From a virus (Duplodnaviria > Caudoviricetes): DNA of 26,437 nt. Numbering within the stretch: the stretch's first letter is position 1; the number at the start of each line of letters is the position of its first letter. Below the pieces are notes generated by a model. It ran no database searches. It saw only the letters and a program-made list of their open reading frames with translations, and was not told where the DNA came from. This document shows, piece by piece, positions 19-13,083 of this stretch. The stretch lies in the IMG/VR virus record IMGVR_UViG_3300038675_000440, positions 1 to 26,437 of that record. One strand, given 5' to 3'. The position numbers and the translations under genes are program-made.

Positions 19-174
19 TTATTTTTGTTTTTTTGCCTGGGTCAAAGGCGTATAGTGCTGGCATTTATCCCTTTCGTAAGGCGCTGCCTCTTTCATTTTT
101 AAATAATACTCGTCAAAATCGTTGCCAATCCATGCGTATAACAACTTTTCAAAAATGCGTTTTAGTAGTTTCAT
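19..174 (-). CDS. small hypothetical protein (~51 aa)
   Basis: ORF track 19..201; the ATG at 174 (MKLLKRIF) overlaps the stop of the upstream gene (ATGA), so it is the more likely start. Confidence 0.6.
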   Translation of the reverse strand: MKLLKRIFEKLLYAWIGNDFDEYYLKMKEAAPYERDKCQHYTPLTQAKKQK

Positions 175-1205
175 AATTTTTGTGTTTCCCCGTGCAACCA
201 AATTGCCAATTGTTTAAGCCTGCGCTCGGTTTCATTAACTAACTTTTGGGCTTCATTGCTTTTTACCGCTGGCAATTTAACAACCTCAATGTCGGCTGCT
301 AGTTGGTATAGCTTGTTTGCATCTGGTAATAACATTGCTTCGCGTTCCGCTTTTTCTTTTGCTTTTTGTTCTGCCTCCACCCTTGCTTTGGCATCAGCTT
401 CCTTTTTTGCTTGCGCTTCCTGCTGCTCGCGTAATTTTTGCTCGGCGGCCTCTTTTTCCTTGGCTAGCTTTAGGTTTTCTTGCCTAATGCGCTCCTGTTC
501 ATCATCATGCTTTTTTTTGTTTTTCTTACCACTGGCAAGCGCAACGCTGTAGGCTTCTGCCGTGGTTTCAAGTGTTAGCTCAAAATCAAAACTTATAAAA
601 TCTGTGTACGGCGCTAGTTCAACGCGGCGCTCGTTATATATTTTTTCTTTGCGCTGGTTTTCCAAACGCTCCGCCTCTGCTTTTTTTTCAGCCGCAATAC
701 GTGCCTCGTGGGCTTCTTTACTATTTTTTAACAAATTATCAAACGCAACGTCACTCATGCCTTTAAGTTCGTAAACACTAACGTCCTCAACATAAGGCGT
801 AAGGTCATTAAGCCGTTTTTGGTGCCTTTCAGCAAGCCGTTTTTCCTCAAGTAGCTCGGCATATTTTTCCTGTGCCTGTAAATGCTCCTCAACCGGCACA
901 ATTAGTGCTTTAATAATATTGGCCGCACCATCAATAGCGCGCCCCTCGCGTAGGCTTTGCTCTTTTAATTCTTTGCGGGTTTTTTCAATACTAACCCTAA
1001 TGTCTTTTAGCTTTAAACGCTCTGTGCGGGCTAACTGCATTGTGTCGGTGTCATCAGCGCTAGTAACTTTAATTTCGCGTGCAGCTGTAACAATCTGTTT
1101 TGCTTCCTGAAATGCCGGTGCAAAAGTTTCCATTAGGGTTTGTACTTTTGGTTTTGGCAAATTGCTTTGCTCAACAATTTGTACTAATTGGTTTTGGTCT
1201 GTCAT
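171..1205 (-). CDS. coiled-coil phage protein of the recombination module (DUF1351-like)
   Basis: 344 aa, E/K/A-rich helical; ARTERLKLKDIRVSIEKTRKELKE...IDG segment typical of proteins next to phage SSAP/exonuclease genes. Confidence 0.65.
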   Translation of the reverse strand: MTDQNQLVQIVEQSNLPKPKVQTLMETFAPAFQEAKQIVTAAREIKVTSADDTDTMQLARTERLKLKDIRVSIEKTRKELKEQSLREGRAIDGAANIIKALIVPVEEHLQAQEKYAELLEEKRLAERHQKRLNDLTPYVEDVSVYELKGMSDVAFDNLLKNSKEAHEARIAAEKKAEAERLENQRKEKIYNERRVELAPYTDFISFDFELTLETTAEAYSVALASGKKNKKKHDDEQERIRQENLKLAKEKEAAEQKLREQQEAQAKKEADAKARVEAEQKAKEKAEREAMLLPDANKLYQLAADIEVVKLPAVKSNEAQKLVNETERRLKQLAIWLHGETQKL

Positions 1206-1351
1206 TTTAATTTTCCCTTAATATTATTTAATAAATCAATTAAAAAGTTTTCATAACTCCCATGTATTCTACCTATTACAGTTCCAATAAATCCCCAAAT
1301 TAAATAACACAAAATTATAATTATGCCTTCAATGTAAGTTAATGTAATCAT
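1202..1351 (-). CDS. small single-TM membrane protein (49 aa), not in ORF track
   Basis: Hand translation MITLTYIEGIIIILCYLIWGFIGTVIGRIHGSYENFLIDLLNNIKGKLK; ATGA overlaps at both ends exactly fill the gap between neighbours. Confidence 0.7.
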   Translation of the reverse strand: MITLTYIEGIIIILCYLIWGFIGTVIGRIHGSYENFLIDLLNNIKGKLK

Positions 1352-1935
1352 TTTACAGCCTCCAAAATAGTTTTTATTTGTGCCACACCCTGCTGTGCCC
1401 CAGCTTTAATTTTTGCAATTTTAACCTCATCACGCATTACCCGCTCAATTAAAAGCGGCTTTGGGAAGTCTGGCGCATATAGTACGTAGTCAACCCACTC
1501 GCGCTCTGTTACCCACATTTGCATTTGCATTTACCAAACGTATTTAGTGTCTATTTTTTTGGTGTGCATGGCCTTTAAAAACACAATATCGCTTGGGCAT
1601 TTAAACTCAACCAAGCCGTCATCACCCACTAGGCCGTCAGGGCTAGCACCGGTGTATTGGTCAAGCTCAACAAACCCAACTTCCTTTACCACATTGCCGG
1701 TTTCAAGTTCATAGCTATTGCGTGCTAGCGGTTCTAATTCATTGCCGCGTTTAATGTGCTCGTTTTCAAACTGCTCTGGCAACTTGTGCGTTAGCAGCTC
1801 TGCAACTTTTTCGTATACCAGTGTTTCCAAACCTTTGCCATTACTTGCTATGGCCTGGGCACTACTTGCTGTTAATTTACCAAGGCGTAGCTTTAGCCAC
1901 TCGTCAGTACCTTGTTTTATGTTATGCAGCTTCAT
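1348..1935 (-). pseudogene. YqaJ/lambda-exonuclease family recombinase exonuclease interrupted by an in-frame TAA
   Basis: QGTDEWLKLRLGKLTAS, RGNELEP, GASPDGLV, VEFKCP motifs; ORFs 1531..1953 and 1348..1530 are in the same frame, separated by a TAA (1531-1533) where the W-Q-MQ.QM motif needs Gln. Confidence 0.85.
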
Positions 1936-2512
1936 TGGTTTCCTCCAGCTCATTTTTGCGCTTGGTGTAGTAGGCTACTAGCGGTTTTTGGTATTCGGCA
2001 CCAAGCTCCGTTTTAAGCTCAGCGCACACGGCCACTAATTCCTCGTGTGTTTTTGCCCCATCAATTTTGCCCTGGCTAATTGGGTCTAGCTCTGTGGTGT
2101 CAGCTGGTTCCTGTGCATCAACGCTGTCGCCCTCGCTAATTTCGTACGCCTCCATATAAACATAACGGCGCATGTAGGTGTGCTTACCACCCAAGTTTTG
2201 TATTGCCTGGCCACCCTGTATGCTAGCTTCTGCCGTTGGCGTTTTCCAAACCATACAATCATCGGGGTTGTCGCTATTCATTACTTTTAAAATAGCAACT
2301 TCCTGCTCACCCTTTTTGGGGTAAATGTTAAAAAACGTGGTAATGCCGTTTTCAAAATTAAGCCTATTAACCGCCGGCATAAAGTCGCCTAGCTGGTAAT
2401 ATTTGGCTTTGGTGTGTTTATTTTCGCCCGTTTTTTTAAGCTCAAGTGTGCCTAATTCGTTGCGCACCTTGCTCATGCGTTGGTGTATGTTAAGTGTTTT
2501 TTCTGCTGGCAT
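1922..2512 (-). CDS. erf: ERF-family single-strand annealing protein
   Basis: KKTGENKHTKAKYYQLGD and Q.LGG.HTYMRRY motifs; adjacent to the exonuclease. Confidence 0.85.
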   Translation of the reverse strand: MPAEKTLNIHQRMSKVRNELGTLELKKTGENKHTKAKYYQLGDFMPAVNRLNFENGITTFFNIYPKKGEQEVAILKVMNSDNPDDCMVWKTPTAEASIQGGQAIQNLGGKHTYMRRYVYMEAYEISEGDSVDAQEPADTTELDPISQGKIDGAKTHEELVAVCAELKTELGAEYQKPLVAYYTKRKNELEETNEAA

Positions 2513-2540
2513 GCTTTCCTTTTTTTATTATTACTTAGTA

Positions 2541-2569
2541 AGTGTATACCGTTTTTAAACGGTTAGCAA
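2541..2569 (-). promoter_or_regulatory. sigma70-type promoter TTGCTA-N17-TACACT with palindromic operator ACCGTTTTTAAACGGT (2548-2563) in the spacer
   Basis: Read directly; the same operator and geometry recur at 3196-3224. Confidence 0.75.
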
Positions 2570-2760
2570 TCCTCAATTACTATCTCGTTTATTATCTCAT
2601 TTGCGGCCACAACTACCTCGCTAAGCTGGGCAATGGTGCCAGTAAATAAAACCGTGCCGTCTTTTTCTTGTATTGTGCAATCCCTAATGGTGCCGTCAGG
2701 TGCGTAGTCAATACTTATGTAGTTGTTTTTTAATTTAAACTCTGCGCTAGTTTTTTGCAT
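2563..2760 (-). CDS. hypothetical protein (65 aa)
   Basis: ORF track; overlaps the upstream gene; AGG-type SD. Confidence 0.65.
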   Translation of the reverse strand: MQKTSAEFKLKNNYISIDYAPDGTIRDCTIQEKDGTVLFTGTIAQLSEVVVAANEIINEIVIEDC

Positions 2761-2980
2761 TGCGCCTTTCCGCTATATAGCTAGCTATGCTTTCAAAACC
2801 AAGTACGTCCAAGCATTCCATTGGGTCGCTTAATATTGCCTCAAACTCTGGTAATATGGTTGTTTCGTAGTGTGTTGGGTCTGGTGGTTTAAAGCCGTTG
2901 TTTTGCGTTTCAAAATATACAACGCCGGTATTTTCCCAATGGTCAATTACTTCATTTTGTAGGTTGGTTAAATCTAACAT
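2747..2980 (-). CDS. hypothetical protein (77 aa)
   Basis: ORF track; GGAGG SD 4 nt before ATG. Confidence 0.75.
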   Translation of the reverse strand: MLDLTNLQNEVIDHWENTGVVYFETQNNGFKPPDPTHYETTILPEFEAILSDPMECLDVLGFESIASYIAERRNAKN

Positions 2981-3189
2981 AGTGCCTCCGCTACAACTTT
3001 TGTATCTACCTTGTCAGCCTCAGCCCAGCCAACTATGCTGCCAAAATCGCCCTGGCCGTCAATATAGCCGTTAATAATTACCTTTACTGCATTAGCTGGC
3101 TCAATGCCGCGCTTGGTAAGGTCTTTAAATTGCATTTGTGCAAATAGGTCTGTTTCAAAATTGTTTATAGCTTTTTTTGTTGCTTGCAT
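2974..3189 (-). CDS. hypothetical protein (71 aa), probably leaderless
   Basis: ORF track; ATG lies 6 nt downstream of a TATACT -10 box. Confidence 0.7.
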   Translation of the reverse strand: MQATKKAINNFETDLFAQMQFKDLTKRGIEPANAVKVIINGYIDGQGDFGSIVGWAEADKVDTKVVAEALC

Positions 3190-3195
3190 AATACG

Positions 3196-3224
3196 AGTAT
3201 AAACCGTTTATAAACGGTATGCAA
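3196..3224 (-). promoter_or_regulatory. sigma70-type promoter TTGCAT-N17-TATACT with perfect 16-bp palindrome ACCGTTTATAAACGGT (3203-3218) in the spacer
   Basis: Read directly from the sequence. Confidence 0.8.
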
Positions 3225-3244: not shown

Positions 3245-3463
3245 TTAAAAAAGGGTGTTTTGGTTTTGTGGTTTGTATATACGCTGGCCGCGTCTATTTT
3301 TGCTTTTAAGTTTGCCCGTTGTTTTTGGTATATCTAAGCCACTGATAAAGGGCAGGCACCGCCAGCCGTGTTTTTCACATAGCCCAAGCAGGTGTTTTGT
3401 GCCGTTTTTATATTTTTGGTAACAAAGCTCTAAACAAACTGAGTTACATTTATTACATTTCAT
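3245..3463 (-). CDS. small basic zinc-finger protein (72 aa)
   Basis: CNKC...KNGTKH...CEKH metal-binding pattern; K/R-rich tail. Confidence 0.7.
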   Translation of the reverse strand: MKCNKCNSVCLELCYQKYKNGTKHLLGLCEKHGWRCLPFISGLDIPKTTGKLKSKNRRGQRIYKPQNQNTLF

Positions 3464-3468
3464 AATTA

Positions 3469-3845
3469 GGTTATTCCGTCAACCAAAGCCTAAGCCTAGA
3501 AGCTACACTACTCTGAGCCTGGTAGTGATTTTTAAACGAGGCACAACAAAACACTCGGGTGTTAACTTGCGAGTTTGTAATCTTTGGTATTCCAGAATGT
3601 TAATGTGCTTATTACTAGTAATCGAGGTGGGGCTATTCCGTATAACCGTCGCCGTCGCCTTTTCGCTCCGCGCTTTCTTAACAGGTTCTTATATTGCGGT
3701 TGCCTGTGGGTATCGCGGTACCCTACTCTCCGCCCCAGGTATTAGCTGGGCGGGAGTGTCGTAGCCTAAGCCAAGACACCCTCGCTCAACGAACACCAAC
3801 AAGCGCGCCCCACAGCACAAACGCCATGAAGCTGCCGGCAACTAA
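3469..3845 (-). ncRNA. candidate structured non-coding RNA or cis-element
   Basis: Dense hairpins (3469-3484, 3506-3527, 3631-3647, 3708-3723, 3728-3755, 3756-3779), repeated motifs, no convincing ORF; no known family recognised. Confidence 0.45.
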
Positions 3846-3848
3846 TAT

Positions 3849-3896
3849 AAAAAAAACACTCCGTATGCCCTTGTGGGGAAACCGAGTGCTTTTTTT
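3849..3896 (-). terminator. intrinsic terminator/attenuator hairpin, possibly bidirectional
   Basis: Minus strand A7-GCACTC...GAGTGT-T run; the G.U pair favours the minus strand. Confidence 0.7.
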
Positions 3897-3929
3897 AACA
3901 CATGTATTTTGAAGTAGTAAGTCTATCAT

Positions 3930-3987
3930 AAAAAAAACCCTTTGGGGTAGTGCTGTGCTGTATGCCACAACAGCACCCCAAAAGGTT
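3930..3987 (-). terminator. intrinsic terminator/attenuator hairpin
   Basis: Minus strand AACCTTTTGGGGT-GCTGT...ACAGCAC-T-ACCCCAAAGGGTT followed by a T run. Confidence 0.8.
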
Positions 3988-4073
3988 CCGTGCATACAGT
4001 TTATCAAACCCCGCTAGTATTTACACTAGCAATTACAGTAAAGCAATTTTTAATAGTAATTGCAAGGAGCAGT

Positions 4074-4562
4074 TTAATGCAACTTGTCAGCCAACATCAT
4101 GTAGGCAAACAAAAAAGCGGCCTCGCCGCCTAGTAAATTGTATTGCTCTTTGCTTAGCGCTTGGCTTTGGGCAAATGTAAAACCATTACGGCTAATCATA
4201 AGCGGGTATTTTATGTCATTGCGCCACACTTTAAAAAAAGCTGCCTGCATCATATCAATGCCAAGCTCGTTGCATTCAGCATAGGTATTGGCAATATCGG
4301 CCTCAATGTCAGCCGGTGGCTGGTTGTCGGTAAAATCACAAATGCGCAGGTAAAGGTAACACTTGTCGCCCGCTTCGCTAGCAAAACTGTAGGGGTCATC
4401 GCCTAGCATGCACAGCTCTTTGGCTTCCTCGTATTCTGCGTGCTCTACCCAATACATTTGTGTTAACTTTGGCAAGTCATCGTCTTTAGTCCAGCTAGTA
4501 CGGAACTCGTTTTGTTCAACAACCTTTTGGCGTATGCCGGTGAGCAGCTCGGCAAGTGGCAT
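4074..4562 (-). CDS. MazG-like all-alpha NTP pyrophosphohydrolase
   Basis: EHAEYEE...EAGD..YL...LGIDM..A...K...N..KYP pattern of the MazG-like/DCTPP1 (RS21-C6) group. Confidence 0.65.
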   Translation of the reverse strand: MPLAELLTGIRQKVVEQNEFRTSWTKDDDLPKLTQMYWVEHAEYEEAKELCMLGDDPYSFASEAGDKCYLYLRICDFTDNQPPADIEADIANTYAECNELGIDMMQAAFFKVWRNDIKYPLMISRNGFTFAQSQALSKEQYNLLGGEAAFLFAYMMLADKLH

Positions 4563-4837
4563 TATTTAAGTTTTTCCAATGCCTTTAGGTTAAGTGGGCT
4601 ATCAATGCCGCTTTTGTAAATGTATTTTTCAACGCCGCGGGCAATGGCTGTGCGCAAGTTAATAATAGTGTCAGCCACTAAAACAGCTAGCGCAACATTC
4701 CACTCAATTAAAAACGTGCCCAACTCTTTGTTAATGCCGGCCACAACAATGCCCAACACAACAACAAGCGTTAAAATCTCAGCAATAATAAAGGTGCGCA
4801 ACCCCTCTTGTAATGCGCTTATAGCTTCTTTTTGCAT
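4562..4837 (-). CDS. holin-like membrane protein (2 TM)
   Basis: 91 aa, two hydrophobic segments, charged C-terminus, directly after the endolysin. Confidence 0.6.
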   Translation of the reverse strand: MQKEAISALQEGLRTFIIAEILTLVVVLGIVVAGINKELGTFLIEWNVALAVLVADTIINLRTAIARGVEKYIYKSGIDSPLNLKALEKLK

Positions 4838-4840
4838 GCG

Positions 4841-5794
4841 TTACTCCTTTACGCTATGGTTAAGTTTATACTTTTTACCGTCAGCCTCCCATTCAATGAC
4901 CAAGCCGTTAGCCTTTAGGTTATCGGCTGCTGGCAGTGTTGCCGGCGGAGTGTTAATAGGGGTGCTGTCATTATTTGATTGCTGCATAAGTCTTTTTAAC
5001 TCACTAACTAAACCCGTAACTCTATTTATTTCATTTGGCAGACTAAGCTCGCGACTGATATTTTGTATGGTAGCCAACTTTTCAGCTGTGCGTCCGTCAG
5101 AAACACGTTTTTCGCATTCTTGACTTAACTCTTTAAGCGCTGTGTCATGGGCTGTTTGGTCAACAAACTCACCGTTTTGTAGACGTACCAACACATCTAC
5201 GGCAACTTTCATGCTTTCAGCATTTTCTAAATCATAGCCTTTATACATATTTGGCATTGTGCCTCCGTCCTGCTGGTCGGCCAGCTGTGTAACCCATTGT
5301 ACTGCATATTGTTCAACACCTGCAAATGATAATGGCGGGTTGGTATCGCGTGGGTAGCGTGGGTCTAAAAAGCCCCAATTCCACTGCTTGGCGCGGTATT
5401 TATTACTACCACTTTCATTTAGAATAACAAAATTAAAATGCACGTGTTCACCAGTTACGTTCCCACTGCCACCCATTTCGCCCAAAACATAGCCGGCTTT
5501 AACCTGCTGGCCACTGGTTACACCAATATTGTCAAAGTGGCATAGGTAAACAGCACAGCCCTGGTTATAGTCCTCAATCACAACGTAGTCGCCATAGTTA
5601 ACGTCCTTGCCAACAAACGCGGTGCCAGCAATTGGGCTACGTGCTTTTTTAAGTTTATCCCCGTGGCCAAAGTCAACACCCTCATGGCCGTGTATTAAAT
5701 TAAATTGCGCGTAATAGCTTTTGCGTGCGCCGTAGTTTTGGGTAACGTAGTAACCATCAAGTAAAAAAGTGTCTAATAATTTAAAGGTTTTCAT
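4841..5794 (-). CDS. endolysin, peptidase M23 domain plus C-terminal helical domain
   Basis: HEGVDFG (HxxxD), YGDYVVI, YLCH, GEMGGSGNVTGEHVHF (HxH) motifs of M23. Confidence 0.9.
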   Translation of the reverse strand: MKTFKLLDTFLLDGYYVTQNYGARKSYYAQFNLIHGHEGVDFGHGDKLKKARSPIAGTAFVGKDVNYGDYVVIEDYNQGCAVYLCHFDNIGVTSGQQVKAGYVLGEMGGSGNVTGEHVHFNFVILNESGSNKYRAKQWNWGFLDPRYPRDTNPPLSFAGVEQYAVQWVTQLADQQDGGTMPNMYKGYDLENAESMKVAVDVLVRLQNGEFVDQTAHDTALKELSQECEKRVSDGRTAEKLATIQNISRELSLPNEINRVTGLVSELKRLMQQSNNDSTPINTPPATLPAADNLKANGLVIEWEADGKKYKLNHSVKE

Positions 5795-6081
5795 TTACGC
5801 AGGTTATTGTTTATAAAATATAAAATTAAAGCCCAGCCAATTGGTAAAAATGCAATGCGGTAGTCAAGCAGCGGGAAGCCAAAATTGCTTAGGTCAATGG
5901 CAATTTTAACAACTATAAACCAGCTAATTAAAACACCAAGCATGCCCAGGGTTATGGCGGTAACAAACGGTGCTGCGGTTGATTTTTGATTGCGTGCAAT
6001 GCGTAGCAATACATATAGCTGCCAGTTAACTAACAACAAGCCAACAATCGAGGGTAGGTAGAGCAGGATAATATTAAGCAC
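5791..6081 (-). CDS. membrane protein (3 TM) in the lysis cluster
   Basis: GTG start, 96 aa, three hydrophobic helices; coupled to neighbours. Confidence 0.75.
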   Translation of the reverse strand: MLNIILLYLPSIVGLLLVNWQLYVLLRIARNQKSTAAPFVTAITLGMLGVLISWFIVVKIAIDLSNFGFPLLDYRIAFLPIGWALILYFINNNLRK

Positions 6082-6238
6082 GTTTTGCCTTTCTTAATAC
6101 CAGTATGTCCTCAAGTGCCTCAAGCCTAATAATTAACCTGTCAGCCTTGCACAATGCCTGGTCATATTTGTCACTAGCAACCTGGTCGGTTTTTTTTTGC
6201 ATGTCTATATTGAGCAGTTGTCTGAGGATTTTAAGCAT
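6074..6238 (-). CDS. small helical protein (54 aa), not in ORF track
   Basis: Hand translation MLKILRQLLNIDMQKKTDQVASDKYDQALCKADRLIIRLEALEDILVLRKAKRA; 8-bp overlaps with both neighbours. Confidence 0.7.
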   Translation of the reverse strand: MLKILRQLLNIDMQKKTDQVASDKYDQALCKADRLIIRLEALEDILVLRKAKRA

Positions 6239-6434
6239 TTTTGCCCCCGTTCTGCTTTACAAGGTCTGTTAATTTTTCGGCTATTCTAAAAACCCGTTCG
6301 GCTAATTCTAGCTTTTCTTTATTAAGCTCGCCAACGCGCTGGTCTTTTTTATAGTACCCCACGCCGACAACAATTAGCAAAACGCCCAAAAGGCCTTGTT
6401 CAGCTATGGTTTGTAGCCATGTATCAATAGACAT
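6231..6434 (-). CDS. BhlA/UviB-like holin (single N-terminal TM plus coiled coil)
   Basis: IAEQGLLGVLLIVVGVGYYKK then amphipathic helix; heads the lysis cluster. Confidence 0.65.
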   Translation of the reverse strand: MSIDTWLQTIAEQGLLGVLLIVVGVGYYKKDQRVGELNKEKLELAERVFRIAEKLTDLVKQNGGKNA

Positions 6435-6440
6435 AGTTTA

Positions 6441-6449
6441 ACTATATCA
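6441..6449 (-). promoter_or_regulatory. extended -10 promoter TGATATAGT, leaderless start of the lysis cluster
   Basis: TGn-TATAGT 6 nt upstream of ATG 6434; identical 9-mer at 25771-25779. Confidence 0.6.
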
Positions 6450-6486
6450 TGTAAGAGCTGTGTTATAAAAGTGTGATAAACCCAAT

Positions 6487-6735
6487 TTACCCCTGTTTTT
6501 CACCGGTTGCTTGCAACTGTTGTGCTGGCTCATCGTCTTTAATAACAACCTGTATATCAAACTGTGGCTCATGTTTTTTTACTATTGCCACCGCTAACTC
6601 CAACTCTATTGGTAGTTTGTTGTAAACTGGGAAACTTAGGCTTGGGAGTAGTTCGGCGGAGTTCTTCTGTAGAAATTCGCTTAGGTCTGCGGCCACGGCC
6701 TCTTCCCTTTTTTGTTTCTTTGATTGTTCTGGCAT
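6487..6735 (-). CDS. hypothetical protein (82 aa)
   Basis: Strong AAGGAGG SD before ATG. Confidence 0.75.
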   Translation of the reverse strand: MPEQSKKQKREEAVAADLSEFLQKNSAELLPSLSFPVYNKLPIELELAVAIVKKHEPQFDIQVVIKDDEPAQQLQATGEKQG

Positions 6736-6810
6736 TAGCAGCCTCCTTTTTTGGTGCTTTTAATAAAGCATCTTTTTTACTTTTTAATAAATCAACGCTG
6801 GTATTTTGTT

Positions 6811-7782
6811 TTAATTTTGCCATAGTTTTTCGTTTGCTAAAAATTGCTGCCTTGTTTTTTTAGTAAAACGCAACTTAGCAAAACCCTTGCGCCTCCTAAA
6901 TACTAGCATACTTTCACCGTTATTAACGGTTTTAACCTCACCCTCAGTCACTTCCCAAAACATTGGGTCTATGCTTTTAAAATCTTTAACAATGTCAAAA
7001 AACCATACCTCTGGCGCCTCAACGCTATATAAAGCCATGTAGCCACTATTAGTCGGCACAATTGCTGTTTTTGTACTACCGTTAATTTGGAAGGTTGTGC
7101 AGTTAAAATGTATGTCGCCGCTACTGGTTTCAACTACAATGCCACCGCTATTTAGTGCCTGTATTAAAACCAATGGGGCATTAGCTGTACCAACAATAAA
7201 ATCCGTTTCCCCGCTGTTAATGCCAGCAACACCCCTAAAACTGCCACTCTCACTACTGCTGCCAAGTTCAAAAAAACCAAGGCCAGCGCCACCAATATAA
7301 CCGCCAACGTTTGGCTGTAGGGTAAAAGTTATATCACCCCCGTCAAATAAAAAAAAGTTTTCATCACTTAGAGAAACCATGTCGTCACCGCTGCTAGTAC
7401 GTATTCTGTCACCAGTAATTGTTATACCAGTAATACTACCCGCAGTAAGCGTACCAAAGTTGGCACTTATTGCGCTTAGCTCATCTACATCCAACTTATC
7501 GGCCGTAATAGTATCCGCACCTATGCGGTCAGCGCTAATAGTGCCAGCCGTTACTTTTACAGCACTTAGGCTATCAACTTTTGCATTAGTAACAGCGCCG
7601 GTAGCAATCTTACCGGTGGTTATTGCCCCATCCTCAATTTTTGCGGTAGTAATTATGGCCGTACCAATACGCGCCGTATCAATTGGTGCGCCCTGTACCA
7701 TGGCTTGTAACGTACTAACGCGTTGCTCAATTGTGGCAATTTGGTCAAAAAGCTGCTGGCTTGCTAGACTATTTAAACTCAT
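6811..7782 (-). CDS. tail fibre/receptor-binding protein, paralog 3
   Basis: IT.AKI-type repeats, variable beta-rich middle, conserved KTAIVPT..GY.ALY..EAPEVWF.D C-terminus; ATG 7782 overlaps the upstream stop. Confidence 0.8.
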   Translation of the reverse strand: MSLNSLASQQLFDQIATIEQRVSTLQAMVQGAPIDTARIGTAIITTAKIEDGAITTGKIATGAVTNAKVDSLSAVKVTAGTISADRIGADTITADKLDVDELSAISANFGTLTAGSITGITITGDRIRTSSGDDMVSLSDENFFLFDGGDITFTLQPNVGGYIGGAGLGFFELGSSSESGSFRGVAGINSGETDFIVGTANAPLVLIQALNSGGIVVETSSGDIHFNCTTFQINGSTKTAIVPTNSGYMALYSVEAPEVWFFDIVKDFKSIDPMFWEVTEGEVKTVNNGESMLVFRRRKGFAKLRFTKKTRQQFLANEKLWQN

Positions 7783-8744
7783 ACCGCCCCCCAAAACTTG
7801 TTGTTTTTATCAAACTGCACCGCTGTCTTTTTTTCAAACCTAGTATTTAAAAATCCCTTACGCTTGCGGAAAACTAATAATTCCCCCTGGTCTGTTGTCA
7901 GTGCGTTTATTTCACCCTCGGTTACCTCACTAAAAATTGGGTCAAACTTGTCTTTAATAAAATCAAAAAACCAAACCTCTGGTGCTTCTAAACAATATAA
8001 GGCGCGGTAGCCTTGTTTTGTTGGCACAATAGCTGTTTTAACACTGCCGTTTATTCTAACGTTGCCACTTGGCCAGATGTTAATTTGGTCATCAGCTGCA
8101 ACAAGTTGCATATCACCACCACTTTGGCCACTAATAAAATCAAAATCTATACTGCCCCCAACTTGGAAAGTTGTCTGTGTGCTACTAGCTTTAAAAAAAC
8201 TTGCCCAAAAAGTGCCAGTTGAAAACTTATACCAATGTGTGCCGATGTCATATATTTTTAAGCCATCTGGGTCAAAGCGGTATTTTTCAGTACCACCGCT
8301 GTTATAAAAGCGCATAGCATTTGGGCTAGCCGTCATTTCAATACGCTCACCACTGCTTGCCGTACGCACCGTACCACCAGTTATGGTAACACCGGTAATG
8401 CTACCGCCAGTAATAGTACCAACATCAGCACTAATTGCGCTTAATGTACTAATATTTAATTTATCGGCGGTAATTATGCCAGCACCAATACGCGCCGCAT
8501 TTAATGTGCCCGCAGTAAAGTCGCCCGCATCAATGCTAGTTATTTTTGCGTTTGTAATTGCAAGGTCAGCAAACTTTGCATTGGTAATACTAAGGTCGTC
8601 AATTTGTGCATCGGTAATACTTGCGTCCTTTATGCGTATTACACTAACGGGGTTGCCAGCTAAAAATAGCTCAACTTCCTCAAGCTGCTCTTGTATGCGG
8701 CCAAACCTACGCTCAATAGTAGCTTGTTCAATTACATTAAGCAT
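7779..8744 (-). CDS. tail fibre/receptor-binding protein, paralog 2
   Basis: Same architecture; true start MLNVIEQA at 8744 by homology to MSLNIIEQA of paralog 1. Confidence 0.8.
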   Translation of the reverse strand: MLNVIEQATIERRFGRIQEQLEEVELFLAGNPVSVIRIKDASITDAQIDDLSITNAKFADLAITNAKITSIDAGDFTAGTLNAARIGAGIITADKLNISTLSAISADVGTITGGSITGVTITGGTVRTASSGERIEMTASPNAMRFYNSGGTEKYRFDPDGLKIYDIGTHWYKFSTGTFWASFFKASSTQTTFQVGGSIDFDFISGQSGGDMQLVAADDQINIWPSGNVRINGSVKTAIVPTKQGYRALYCLEAPEVWFFDFIKDKFDPIFSEVTEGEINALTTDQGELLVFRKRKGFLNTRFEKKTAVQFDKNNKFWGAV

Positions 8745-9687
8745 ACAGCTTGCTATTCCTTTCAAACTCCACACTCGTTTTTTTTGTAAAACGTGTTTTG
8801 GCATAGCCCTTGCGTTTTGCAAACACTAGTTTTTTACCATTTATACATTTAAAAACGTGTTGCTTGCCCTCAGTTACTTCACTAAACATGGGGTCAGGCT
8901 TGCTTTTATAAAAATCCATAAACCAAACCCCTGGTGCTTCTGCACAATACAGCGCCCTGTAACCATTTTCGGTTAGCACAATTGCGGTTTTTGTACCAGT
9001 ATCAAGGCGTACCGTTGGTGCAATTAAGTTAATGGTGTCATCAGCAACAAAATAAATATCCCCACTGCCGTCGTGGTTTATGTAAAGTAAGCCATTATTA
9101 ACCGTCTGTATTAGGTTAAAAGAACTGCTGCTAGCATCCCATTGGGTCATTAAATTACTGCTGGCGTCATACAACCTAATTGCTGCTGTACCATAAAAAA
9201 CAACGTTGCCAGCACCCATGGCCACACGCTTGTTACCACTATCGTAAACATAAAATCGCTCTGGACTACCACTTATTTCAACGCGGCTACTAGAGTCAAC
9301 CGTGCGCACGGTGCCACCAGTAATTGTTACGCCGGTTACTGTGCCAGCATTAACGCTACCAATATCAGAAGTTATGGCACTTAATGTACTAACGTTTAAT
9401 TTTGTAGCGGTAATACTACTAGCCGCAATCCTGTCAGCGCTTAACGTACCGGTGGTTATTTTACTAGCGTCAAGGTCATTTATTTTCGCGTTTTCTATGG
9501 TTGCGTTAGCAATTTTTGCAGTAGTAACACTAAGGTCGGCTATTTTTGCACTGGTTATAGTAGCGTCCCCAATGCGTGCCGTGCTAATTGGCACACCAGA
9601 AAAAAAGGCCTCTGCGGCCTGTAGTCTTTCACGTAGGCCGCCAATGCGCCTATTTAACCTAGCCTGCTCAATTATATTTAAACTCAT
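8737..9687 (-). CDS. tail fibre/receptor-binding protein, paralog 1
   Basis: Same architecture; ATGA overlap with the hub gene. Confidence 0.8.
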   Translation of the reverse strand: MSLNIIEQARLNRRIGGLRERLQAAEAFFSGVPISTARIGDATITSAKIADLSVTTAKIANATIENAKINDLDASKITTGTLSADRIAASSITATKLNVSTLSAITSDIGSVNAGTVTGVTITGGTVRTVDSSSRVEISGSPERFYVYDSGNKRVAMGAGNVVFYGTAAIRLYDASSNLMTQWDASSSSFNLIQTVNNGLLYINHDGSGDIYFVADDTINLIAPTVRLDTGTKTAIVLTENGYRALYCAEAPGVWFMDFYKSKPDPMFSEVTEGKQHVFKCINGKKLVFAKRKGYAKTRFTKKTSVEFERNSKLYA

Positions 9688-11075: not shown

Positions 11076-12668
11076 TTAAACCTCCTCTGGTACCATAAAT
11101 GGCAAGCTCCTTGCATTATATTGGTCGGGGCTATCCTCATATTCAGCTGTAACGTGGTATGTAACTGTTACGTCAAGGCCAGTAAAGCTGTAGTCACCGT
11201 TAACGTCACTTGTGGTTGTATTAACAACGGCATCTGTGTCGCTATTTATTAAAGTAATAACTGCATTTTGTACAGGGCTACCGTTTAGAGTACAGGTGCC
11301 ACTAATTACTGCATCCAAAGTGTCAAACTCAACATCAGCACCGTAAGCCGTACCAGCCTCATTTATTGCATATGCCCGGTAATAATAATGTGTGTCTGGG
11401 TCTAGGCCAGTTATAGCTACACCAGTAAACGCACCCGTTCCACTGCCGCTTGCCTGTTTGTTACCAGCTATTGTTGGGTTGGGGCTTGTGCCCCAAACAA
11501 CACCGCGCTCACTAACTGTGCCACCACCGTCATCAGTTACATTACCACCGCCCTCGGCGCTAATACTTGTTATATTTGTAGCTGGGGTTTCGGTTGTAAC
11601 CGTAGCTAATGAGGCTGCAGAAATAGAATAAAAAGTTGCAGGTGAATTTTGATTATTATATTCTGTGACAATCCAGTCTAAAGAAATGTTTGACCCATTT
11701 GATAATAAATAAACTTCATCAATTGAACCTGCCCAGTTTTCGTTATCAGCACCAGCAGCATCTTCCCCAATTCCCCAATCAATTGCCCTGGTAGCAATAC
11801 TTGAATCACAAGAACCAGAAGCCTTTAACGAACCATCTAAATATATATATGCTGTACCAGAAATAACTACTACCCAAACACGATGCCAGGAATCATCATT
11901 TATAGTATTGGTCGTTTGAATATCTAAATCTGTAGTTCCCCATATTCTTAATCTGGCTTGATTCGTGTCTTTTTTATCAAAAATAATATCACCATCAAGT
12001 GGCGCACCAGCGCCAGCATATTTAGAAACGATACGCTTTAAGTTTGATGATTCTGATGTTTTTATCCAAGCAGCTATTGCAAAAGATGCTCCAGGTGAAT
12101 CAATAACCTGACCAATGTTTATTTTACTAGTGGCACCGTTATATCCTCCACCATTTCCTATTTTTCCATTAGCATCGCTATAGGTTATGTCTGTATCAGC
12201 CCCATCGTATGAACCTAATGAGTCAACAGCGCTTGATTCCTTATGATAAACTGCTGCAAAATCACTATTCCACGCTCCTGATATATTTTCTTGAGAAGTT
12301 GTTACACCACTGTCGTTATATCCAATATATATATTTGTATCGACATTATAGTTTAATGTCGGAATTTTTACGCTAACTATGATTTCTCCAGTAGTAGCGT
12401 TGTATTTAATTACTTCAAAATTAAGTGGGGTGGTTAAAGCTAAGTCAGAAAAAAAAGCAAAATCTGCTGGCACAGTAGTAGCACCATCAGCACCACCACT
12501 AGCATCGGTGTTTTGAATATCACCACCATTGGCTACAGTCCTAAAATCTGGGTCTGTCCCACTACCAGCATAGACTCCTTTAATTAAAACTGGAAAATCG
12601 GTAAAATTGGAAGAGCCACTAACCTTAGTATTATCTATAGTGATTGCTGCAACGTATTGATATGCCAT
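11076..12668 (-). CDS. virion adhesin-like protein: DUF2341-like, LamG/ConA-like, Fn3-like and C-terminal beta-sandwich domains
   Basis: TDFPVLI...VKIPTL..N.DT.IYIGY; GKIGNG, AAWIKT, INDDSWH, IYLDG, GSIDEV, WIVTEYNNQ; ERGVVWGTSPNPT, YYYRAYAINEAGTAYG; start set at MAYQY (12668). Confidence 0.75.
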   Translation of the reverse strand: MAYQYVAAITIDNTKVSGSSNFTDFPVLIKGVYAGSGTDPDFRTVANGGDIQNTDASGGADGATTVPADFAFFSDLALTTPLNFEVIKYNATTGEIIVSVKIPTLNYNVDTNIYIGYNDSGVTTSQENISGAWNSDFAAVYHKESSAVDSLGSYDGADTDITYSDANGKIGNGGGYNGATSKINIGQVIDSPGASFAIAAWIKTSESSNLKRIVSKYAGAGAPLDGDIIFDKKDTNQARLRIWGTTDLDIQTTNTINDDSWHRVWVVVISGTAYIYLDGSLKASGSCDSSIATRAIDWGIGEDAAGADNENWAGSIDEVYLLSNGSNISLDWIVTEYNNQNSPATFYSISAASLATVTTETPATNITSISAEGGGNVTDDGGGTVSERGVVWGTSPNPTIAGNKQASGSGTGAFTGVAITGLDPDTHYYYRAYAINEAGTAYGADVEFDTLDAVISGTCTLNGSPVQNAVITLINSDTDAVVNTTTSDVNGDYSFTGLDVTVTYHVTAEYEDSPDQYNARSLPFMVPEEV

Positions 12669-12669
12669 A

Positions 12670-13083
12670 TTATTTTGCCTTTTTACCAATTATAGACTGC
12701 TGTGCTGCTAAAACCCAGCAATTATTTGTATTTGCTGCGCTTACCCACAGTTGTAAAAACGCACTGCCATAGCCAGCCTCGATAACATAATACGTATCCA
12801 TAGCTGCACCAGGCTTTAAATCCTGGCCAACCACTTTACCGTAAGTATATTGTGTTGGTTTTGGGGCGTTTGCAAATGCACTAAACTTGGGGTTTTTGCC
12901 AGCGCTAGGTAAATTAAAAGTACGCTTACCGTCTGTTAAACACAAACTAGTAATGTGTAAATTGTTTTTATTAAGGTAGTCAAACAACTGTAGCCACGGC
13001 GACTTATCACCTGGTTTAGTTGTAAACTTATTTTCTGTAAGTGTTTCGCCGTTATTTAAACCGGCTTGCCAAAAGAGTCGCAT
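12670..13083 (-). CDS. hypothetical protein in the tail module (137 aa)
   Basis: GGAGG SD; in operon. Confidence 0.75.
   Translation of the reverse strand: MRLFWQAGLNNGETLTENKFTTKPGDKSPWLQLFDYLNKNNLHITSLCLTDGKRTFNLPSAGKNPKFSAFANAPKPTQYTYGKVVGQDLKPGAAMDTYYVIEAGYGSAFLQLWVSAANTNNCWVLAAQQSIIGKKAK

Follow-up and report, generated by a model that had tools for sequence, protein, structure and literature searches.

A non-coding gap in the slot of an initiator gene as a candidate initiator-free, transcription-dependent replication origin in a tailed-phage fragment

Results

The 26.4-kb window, by which we mean the whole stretch of DNA analyzed here (26,437 nucleotides), is a fragment of a tailed-phage genome with an estimated completeness of 34%, and its minus strand carries all genes. 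The gene order runs from the terminase, portal, protease-capsid fusion, tail, and M23 endolysin genes to a gap, followed by the Erf and exonuclease genes. The gap in this incomplete window is accordingly bordered by lysis-side and recombination genes (Table 1). A sequence-only reading of the window had singled out this region as its largest gene-free stretch, and 3464-4073 is confirmed as the longest stretch without a real gene. Profile searches with initiator, helicase, primase, and polymerase families found no match among the 26 ORFs of the window; because the window is a fragment, an initiator could sit in the missing part. GC skew shows no switch at the gap, and the contigs of the likely source run that span the stretch carry no variants. 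The DNA probably derives from a bioreactor metagenome. The host is likely a Patescibacterium, because capsid relatives come from contigs assigned by binning to Saccharibacteria and to bacterium ADurb.Bin212, with one such protein named for Dojkabacteria; other related contigs are binned with different groups.

Table 1. Features of the gap, its upstream leader, and its downstream border
Feature	Position	Strand	Basis
Two candidate extended -10 promoters, predicted first early promoter	3998..4031	-	Pattern match, inferred
CTGTATGC 8-mer, complement of hairpin 1 loop	3992..3999	-	Sequence and duplex energy
Hairpin 1 (3987-3936) and U8 tract	3930..3987	-	Pair probability 0.99
Leader ORF, 47 codons, ATG directly after U-tract	3786..3929	-	Predicted ORF
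Hairpin 2 and U-tract, terminator-like on both strands, within leader ORF	3848..3897	-	
Putative origin body, the GC-richer non-coding gap (element of the sequence-only reading)	3464..3847	-	Role inferred from synteny
Folded core, two competing folds	3729..3797	-	One sequence, without null test
First ACGGAATA hairpin	3631..3647	-	Duplication and pair probability
3' box TCGTTTA (3539-3533), then CACTAC/GTAGTG stem (3527-3506)	3506..3539	-	Common to relatives
Second GGCTTAGGCT copy and second ACGGAATA hairpin, 5 nt before ATG	3469..3496	-	
72-aa orphan ORF, Cys/His spacing of a zinc-binding domain	3245..3463	-	Sequence
Next early promoter candidate (TTGCAT, 17-nt palindromic spacer, TATACT), 3' border of unit	3196..3224	-	

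The unit begins at about 4030 and consists, in order, of a predicted promoter, a hairpin whose loop is complementary to promoter-proximal sequence, a U-tract, and a start codon. The two promoter candidates match the extended -10 pattern (TG-C-TAGTGT at 4031-4023 and TG-A-TAAACT at 4006-3998), and a sigma-70 scan detected neither. The loop of hairpin 1, GCATACAG (3965-3958), is the exact complement of the 8-mer at 3999-3992, which also pairs with hairpin 2 via one G-U pair; the predicted duplexes have energies of -12.7 (hairpin 1) and -12.0 kcal/mol (hairpin 2). The location of hairpin 2 inside the leader ORF recurs in three relatives (G010, G029, and G032). Downstream of hairpin 1, the window aligns with G029 at a z of 8.2 against letter shuffles, a value inflated by T-runs. 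On the plus strand, from which an antisense copy-number RNA of the ColE1 kind would be transcribed, extended -10 matches occur at 3560 and 3598, a number expectable for so short a pattern.

The gap proper had been described as densely structured, which does not hold for the region as a whole. Its RNA fold is no better than that of shuffled sequences (z -0.76 on the minus strand and +0.34 on the plus strand), an outcome that the sequence-only reading had itself named as speaking against its claim, and the part at 3464-3640 gives a z of +0.83. Within the span originally highlighted (3469-3845), only about 3660-3840 is locally structured (z -2 to -3.2), with a higher signal on the minus strand near 3740-3840, and the strongest structures fall outside that span, at 3848-3897 (z to -5.9) and 3936-3987 (z to -4.6). 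The five stems and both duplications reported earlier exist at their coordinates, and GGCTTAGGCT (minus strand, 3772 and 3496) and ACGGAATA (3641 and 3479) have exactly two copies each in the window. Together, the listed stems and duplicated motifs barely exceed chance: local 5-bp stems number 7 versus 4.0 in shuffles (p 0.14), a count equalled in 12 of 68 window tiles, while the duplicated motifs are borderline (p 0.025-0.047 in one test and 0.042 in another) and 38 of the 68 tiles reach the same repeat score. In the predicted ensemble, the stems at 3708/3723, 3756/3779, and 3631/3647 hold (pair probability 0.71-0.90), the core of the 3728/3755 stem is half-formed (0.38-0.48), and those at 3506/3527, 3553/3574, and 3469/3484 are weak (at most 0.20). 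The two predicted folds that compete in the core are a rod (3797-3738; -41.3 kcal/mol) tipped by the first GGCTTAGGCT copy and an alternative built on the earlier reading's 3755/3729 stem (-37.8 kcal/mol, 3.5 above the rod).

The sequence-only reading could not match the region to hallmarks of tRNA, tmRNA, RNase P, or group I/II introns. A covariance scan with Rfam 15, ribozymes and other families included, gave no score near the gathering threshold, and ARAGORN predicted 0 genes. With Rfam blank, likenesses to IscB/HEARO RNA, permuted tmRNA, RNase P, and CsrA sites, and to the pistol, hairpin, and HDV ribozymes, were dropped. A putative likeness to plasmid single-strand origins was set aside as well. 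A decayed or recoded CDS is unlikely because every minus-strand frame has many stops of all three kinds; the longest stop-free minus-strand frame in the gap is 61 codons. Homologs of the gap DNA were sought by blastn against 50,697 phage records, which returned one 38-nt chance match, and against plasmids, which returned none; blastn and nhmmer found none in 116 loci, and a DNA search of 32 records also found none. The pattern of duplicated motifs has 0 matches in the viral collection, and a likeness between the tandem motifs of the window and G004 was rejected as not significant (p 0.27).

The gap had also been said to escape an avoidance of GA/TC seen in coding DNA. On the coding strand, it contains 11 TC dinucleotides versus 21.0 expected (0.52), so the depletion is relaxed compared with late genes (0.17) and early genes (0.02). 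The escape is partial, and it is not specific because other intergenic DNA stands at 0.30 and a tail gene (11076-12689) at 0.56. The coding strand of the early genes at 171-3189 holds 2 TC dinucleotides versus 120.6 expected, and the opposite strand keeps TC at about 0.7. The loss is absent from all 20 related-phage stretches examined. The near-absence of TC points to a host attack on TC/UC that is specific to the strand or to RNA.

The 72-aa protein encoded downstream of the gap has no family match: searches returned only itself and one false match, with nothing significant in phages, no homolog in 32 records, and Atlas leads under the usable level, and its predicted structure is unusable (pLDDT 53). 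The sequence-only reading had considered a leader bound by this zinc-finger protein. As a general rule this is not supported, because the ORF is absent from all relatives, in which the ORF downstream of the gap varies among unrelated small proteins, a methylase, or none; between the gap and the next promoter, G005 carries the methylase and G032 no ORF. The zinc-finger ORF is thus not a fixed partner of the gap. Nor is a role of the gap as leader of the early genes supported. Promoter-like sites downstream of the 72-aa ORF, at 3224-3196 and 2569-2541, are predicted to serve these genes, and the gap therefore lies upstream of the early-gene units. The two sites share a palindromic 17-nt spacer, a possible operator, and the first directly precedes a leaderless ATG. 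Both candidates are carried by a second contig of run X1, and the pattern has 0 matches in the viral collection.

Relatives were gathered through capsid and Erf alignments that led to loci, and stretches were taken from 22 records. The late/early junction is readable in 8 of these (G004, G005, G007, G010, G011, G029, G031, and G032). Two contigs, L082 and G003, were excluded from the counts as too short or ending at the junction, the remaining records are fragments or too distant for the junction to be resolved, and the closest relatives (Erf, 72-79%; capsid, 78-83%) lie outside the junction set. An Erf profile found no match in 400 further genomes of the phylum of G029. A leader with its own 8- to 11-nt complement is present in the window and in 7 of the 8 relatives, that is, in all except G007, a count that comes from a wider search than the strict and relaxed detectors. 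The strict detector, run over all loci, made 7 detections, 6 of them in the late/early slot, and the relaxed detector selected 20 distinct sites of 537 hairpin-plus-U sites. In the window and in G004, G005, and G031, the complement either reaches the predicted -10 box or comes immediately after it. The cassette of G031 is oriented away from the early genes, and the record of G004 starts at the leader.

What lies behind the leader differs among these phages. G011 has an O/DnaD-like initiator (E 3.5e-10), whose gene starts at the same place as the 47-codon leader ORF of the window, and G031 has a 93-aa ORF plus an initiator (E 3.9e-13). G007, the relative with no such leader, carries a primase-like gene in the slot (E 4e-4). 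The other five (G004, G005, G010, G029, and G032) have a gap of 275 to 475 nt like that of the window, and the gaps contain short ORFs of 14 to 95 codons. In these five, 0 of 88 scanned ORFs match an initiator, helicase, primase, or polymerase family; the scanned set comprises the ORFs outside the virion and lysis blocks, of 142 listed (at least 95 aa), and profile searches can miss divergent initiators, as phrog_186 failed on that of G031. The exchange is seen at close range between G010 and G011, which are 72-87% identical across the leader and the genes downstream. From the start codon onward the two part, G010 continuing into a gap and G011 into an initiator gene, and their cassettes cannot be aligned. 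Of the 34 pairs of their hairpin, 4 show compensatory changes and 0 are broken.

Two distant phages also show a leader with hairpin, upstream complement, and U-tract (L032, minus strand, near 4355 of the reversed locus, and L036). The starts of the ORFs behind these two leaders resemble what we take to be replication initiators. In L082, a 626-nt gap (841-1466) separates a holin-like gene from Erf, with a fold z of -2.9 over 520 nt and no tRNA or Rfam match.

Within the gap, the 3' box and stem are the only part common to relatives. The TCGTTTA box lies 63 to 107 nt from the gap 3' end in 4 of the 6 gaps (window, G005, G010, and G032) and is absent from the gaps of G004 and G029 and from two initiator genes. 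Sharing of the box is by itself unremarkable, as some 7-mer was common to four gaps in 116 of 1,000 shuffle sets; an equally close position was reached in 0 of 1,000, with the caveat that inspection of the data preceded the choice of the box, of its 44-nt span, and of the gap borders. The box is followed in the window, G005, and G032 by a CTAC/GTAG-type stem of variable loop length, which is the 3506-3527 stem of the sequence-only reading. In G005, G010, and G032, what comes after the box is a double G-run, an arrangement with only one other occurrence in 3.16 Mb; the window lacks it and has only G3-G4 runs. When the window gap was aligned with each of the five other gaps, p values were at least 0.07, and its alignment against the G005/G032 box gave p 0.75 or 0.076 according to the gap penalties used. 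The gap of G032 folds at a z of -3.06. The box pattern occurs in 8 stretches of the viral collection: G005 and G032 (by construction), 5 intragenic ones, and 1 intergenic one, L284. In this unrelated phage, box, stem, and G-run lie between convergent genes (2501-2528, minus strand), and the alignment with G005 gives p 0.007 for a locus selected by the same pattern.

Discussion

We propose that 3464-3847 is the body of an initiator-free, transcription-dependent replication origin like the c2 type of Lactococcus, a function to which we assign a probability of roughly 55%. The reading as an origin rests on the fact that the gap fills the slot of the initiator gene of relatives, behind the same kind of leader hairpin. 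Directly observed are the position of the gap, a leader built alike across relatives, the exchange of initiator genes for gaps, and the 3' box in 4 of 6 gaps. Of the structured replication origin suggested earlier, synteny thus supports the origin, and the dense structure was not borne out; the interest of the element is its position rather than its folding.

Under the proposed mechanism, the leader would gate whichever element starts replication, and where no initiator lies downstream, the transcript, or the DNA opened by it, would be the likely agent. A transcript from a promoter near 4006-4031 would open the origin. Most transcripts would end at one of the two hairpins, whose loops, by pairing with the promoter-proximal 8-mer, might set the amount of read-through. 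Read-through RNA would then fold in 3800-3700 and stay hybridized to the template near the TCGTTTA box, where host Pol I, PriA, and an RNase H could convert the hybrid into a replication fork; the 72-aa protein would be an accessory at most. ColE1-type replication requires host Pol I and PriA. Matches to Pol I and PriA were found in 3 of 3 Patescibacteria-type assemblies with related phage contigs (PriA above the cutoff in 2 of them), none of which is the proven host of the window. As a speculative and rather improbable generalization, exchangeable, mutually unalignable RNA-primed origins may replace the initiator gene behind one leader in Patescibacteria phages, with the small hairpin RNA of the leader controlling them through base pairing to the -10/+1 DNA that is single-stranded while its own promoter is open (RNA-on-promoter feedback).

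The nearest known counterparts are the Ceduovirus origins (c2, bIL67, and 923 types). The accessible part of PMC7150918 describes them as non-coding regions at the late/early junction, between the first two early promoters, as falling into three types without mutual similarity, and as supporting plasmid replication without phage proteins, with the transcript of the first promoter implicated in origin function. The window gap is likewise non-coding and situated between late and early genes. Promoter-like motifs lie at 4031/4006 and 3224 and may be the first two early promoters. Whereas an origin of the Ceduovirus type would have no ORF of at least 100 bp between the promoters, the stretch here holds 47- and 72-codon ORFs, lies among co-directional genes, begins with a self-complementary hairpin leader, is exchanged for true initiator genes in relatives, and has no blastn match to a known origin type (PMC7150918). 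It is therefore not a member of the Ceduovirus type, given the ORFs inside and the lack of sequence match.

Other systems share individual traits with the gap. Prophages of cluster A mycobacteriophages have a RepA protein in some cases and a transcribed non-coding origin of 400 to 500 bp in others, according to the accessible text of PMC7157519, and the alternation of gap and initiator gene among our relatives is similar. Those RNA origins maintain the prophage, lie next to parABS, and have transcription running opposite to that of parA, whereas the window, itself incomplete, has no parA and no adjacent parABS (PMC7157519). In ColE1 RNA II and mitochondrial CSB II, as covered in the available part of PMC6317783, a promoter-driven transcript has a G-rich stretch upstream of the origin; the double G-run of three relatives and the presence of a host-type Pol I are reminiscent of this, but the window has only its G3-G4 runs and no Rfam match (PMC6317783). 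The leader recalls P4 CI/seqA and Gifsy-1 IsrK-orf45, in which a promoter, a small hairpin RNA with terminator, an ORF of about 45 codons, and an upstream complement occur together and, in P4, the CI/seqA leader gates the replication genes (PMC4825925, available sections). The window has a promoter-like site, hairpin with terminator, short ORF, and upstream complement; unlike P4, it has no downstream seqC-like target, the second copy being one of the loop rather than of the target, the Rfam models of these RNAs do not match its leader, and an overlap of the complement with the -10 to +1 region is seen in several window-related phages (PMC4825925). Finally, ARRPOF, GEBRO, and PAGEV are covarying plasmid families of 223- to 349-nt structured motifs tied to replication regions and possibly acting as ssDNA (accessible part of PMC5737381), and no such Rfam family matched the gap.

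A free-standing structured ncRNA with a non-replication role (regulation or counter-defense), made from the first early promoter, seems unlikely to us. The local structure at 3660-3840, with its higher minus-strand signal near 3740-3840, the two competing folds, the partial escape from TC loss, and the fold of the G032 gap are all in its favor, but the region as a whole is no better folded than shuffles, lacks a closing terminator and an Rfam match, and the alternation of gaps with initiator genes would go unexplained. We consider it quite unlikely that the gap is a DNA-level origin with the duplicated motifs as binding sites for the 72-aa protein, or for a host protein, acting as initiator. 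The two motifs (p about 0.04) and the ORFs of 55 to 95 aa after the gap in the window, G004, G010, and G029 would suit such an origin; yet the small ORFs compared are unrelated, G032 has none, and the other five gaps show no enrichment of direct repeats (combined p 0.16).

Equally, there is a low probability that the gap is a decayed initiator gene or neutral spacer, with replication proceeding by recombination through the adjacent Erf and exonuclease genes or from elsewhere. The weak structure, the weak repeats, and the mutually unalignable gaps would fit, but a gap of 275 to 475 nt with intact leader is kept in six phages, a positioned box is common to four gaps and absent from two initiator genes, and the 61-codon limit on stop-free minus-strand frames argues against decay. 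It is very improbable that the gap is a 5' leader of the 72-aa gene in which the second ACGGAATA hairpin serves that protein as a translational operator. The end of this hairpin is 5 nt from the ATG, and another copy of it lies upstream, but its pair probability is at most 0.20, the 36 matches to the hairpin-plus-ATG pattern in the viral collection have a zinc-finger ORF behind none (the five inspected fully all lie inside other genes), and the gap is present in relatives without the zinc-finger gene.

A literature search from whose scope most subscription papers were absent found no description of an origin of the kind proposed here, and the supplements of PMC10690425 and PMC5737381 may hold such gaps or leaders; in the accessible main text of PMC10690425, the terms "Patescibacteria" and "CPR" do not occur. 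How replication starts in the many small phages that lack a replication gene is mostly unexplained. The swap of initiator gene and non-coding cassette, visible behind one common leader, names a short fragment that can be tested, and a protein-free origin of Patescibacteria phages could serve as a replicon for bacteria that are hard to manipulate.

Several further features of the window and its relatives were observed. Upstream of the Erf gene of L086 (about 4400-7000) lies a large tRNA-like array, judged by eye. A reversed cluster of G004 (L242, 18589-19967, and L243) has matches to tRNA-ribosyltransferase, GTP cyclohydrolase, a QueE-like protein, and glycosyltransferase and resembles deazaguanine DNA-modification loci. 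In the window, the exonuclease gene (1348-1953) is interrupted by a TAA at 1533-1531, and relatives match both halves back to back; the TAA is either a real break or an assembly error. The region at 6811-9687 encodes three tandem tail paralogs that have N- and C-terminal blocks in common.
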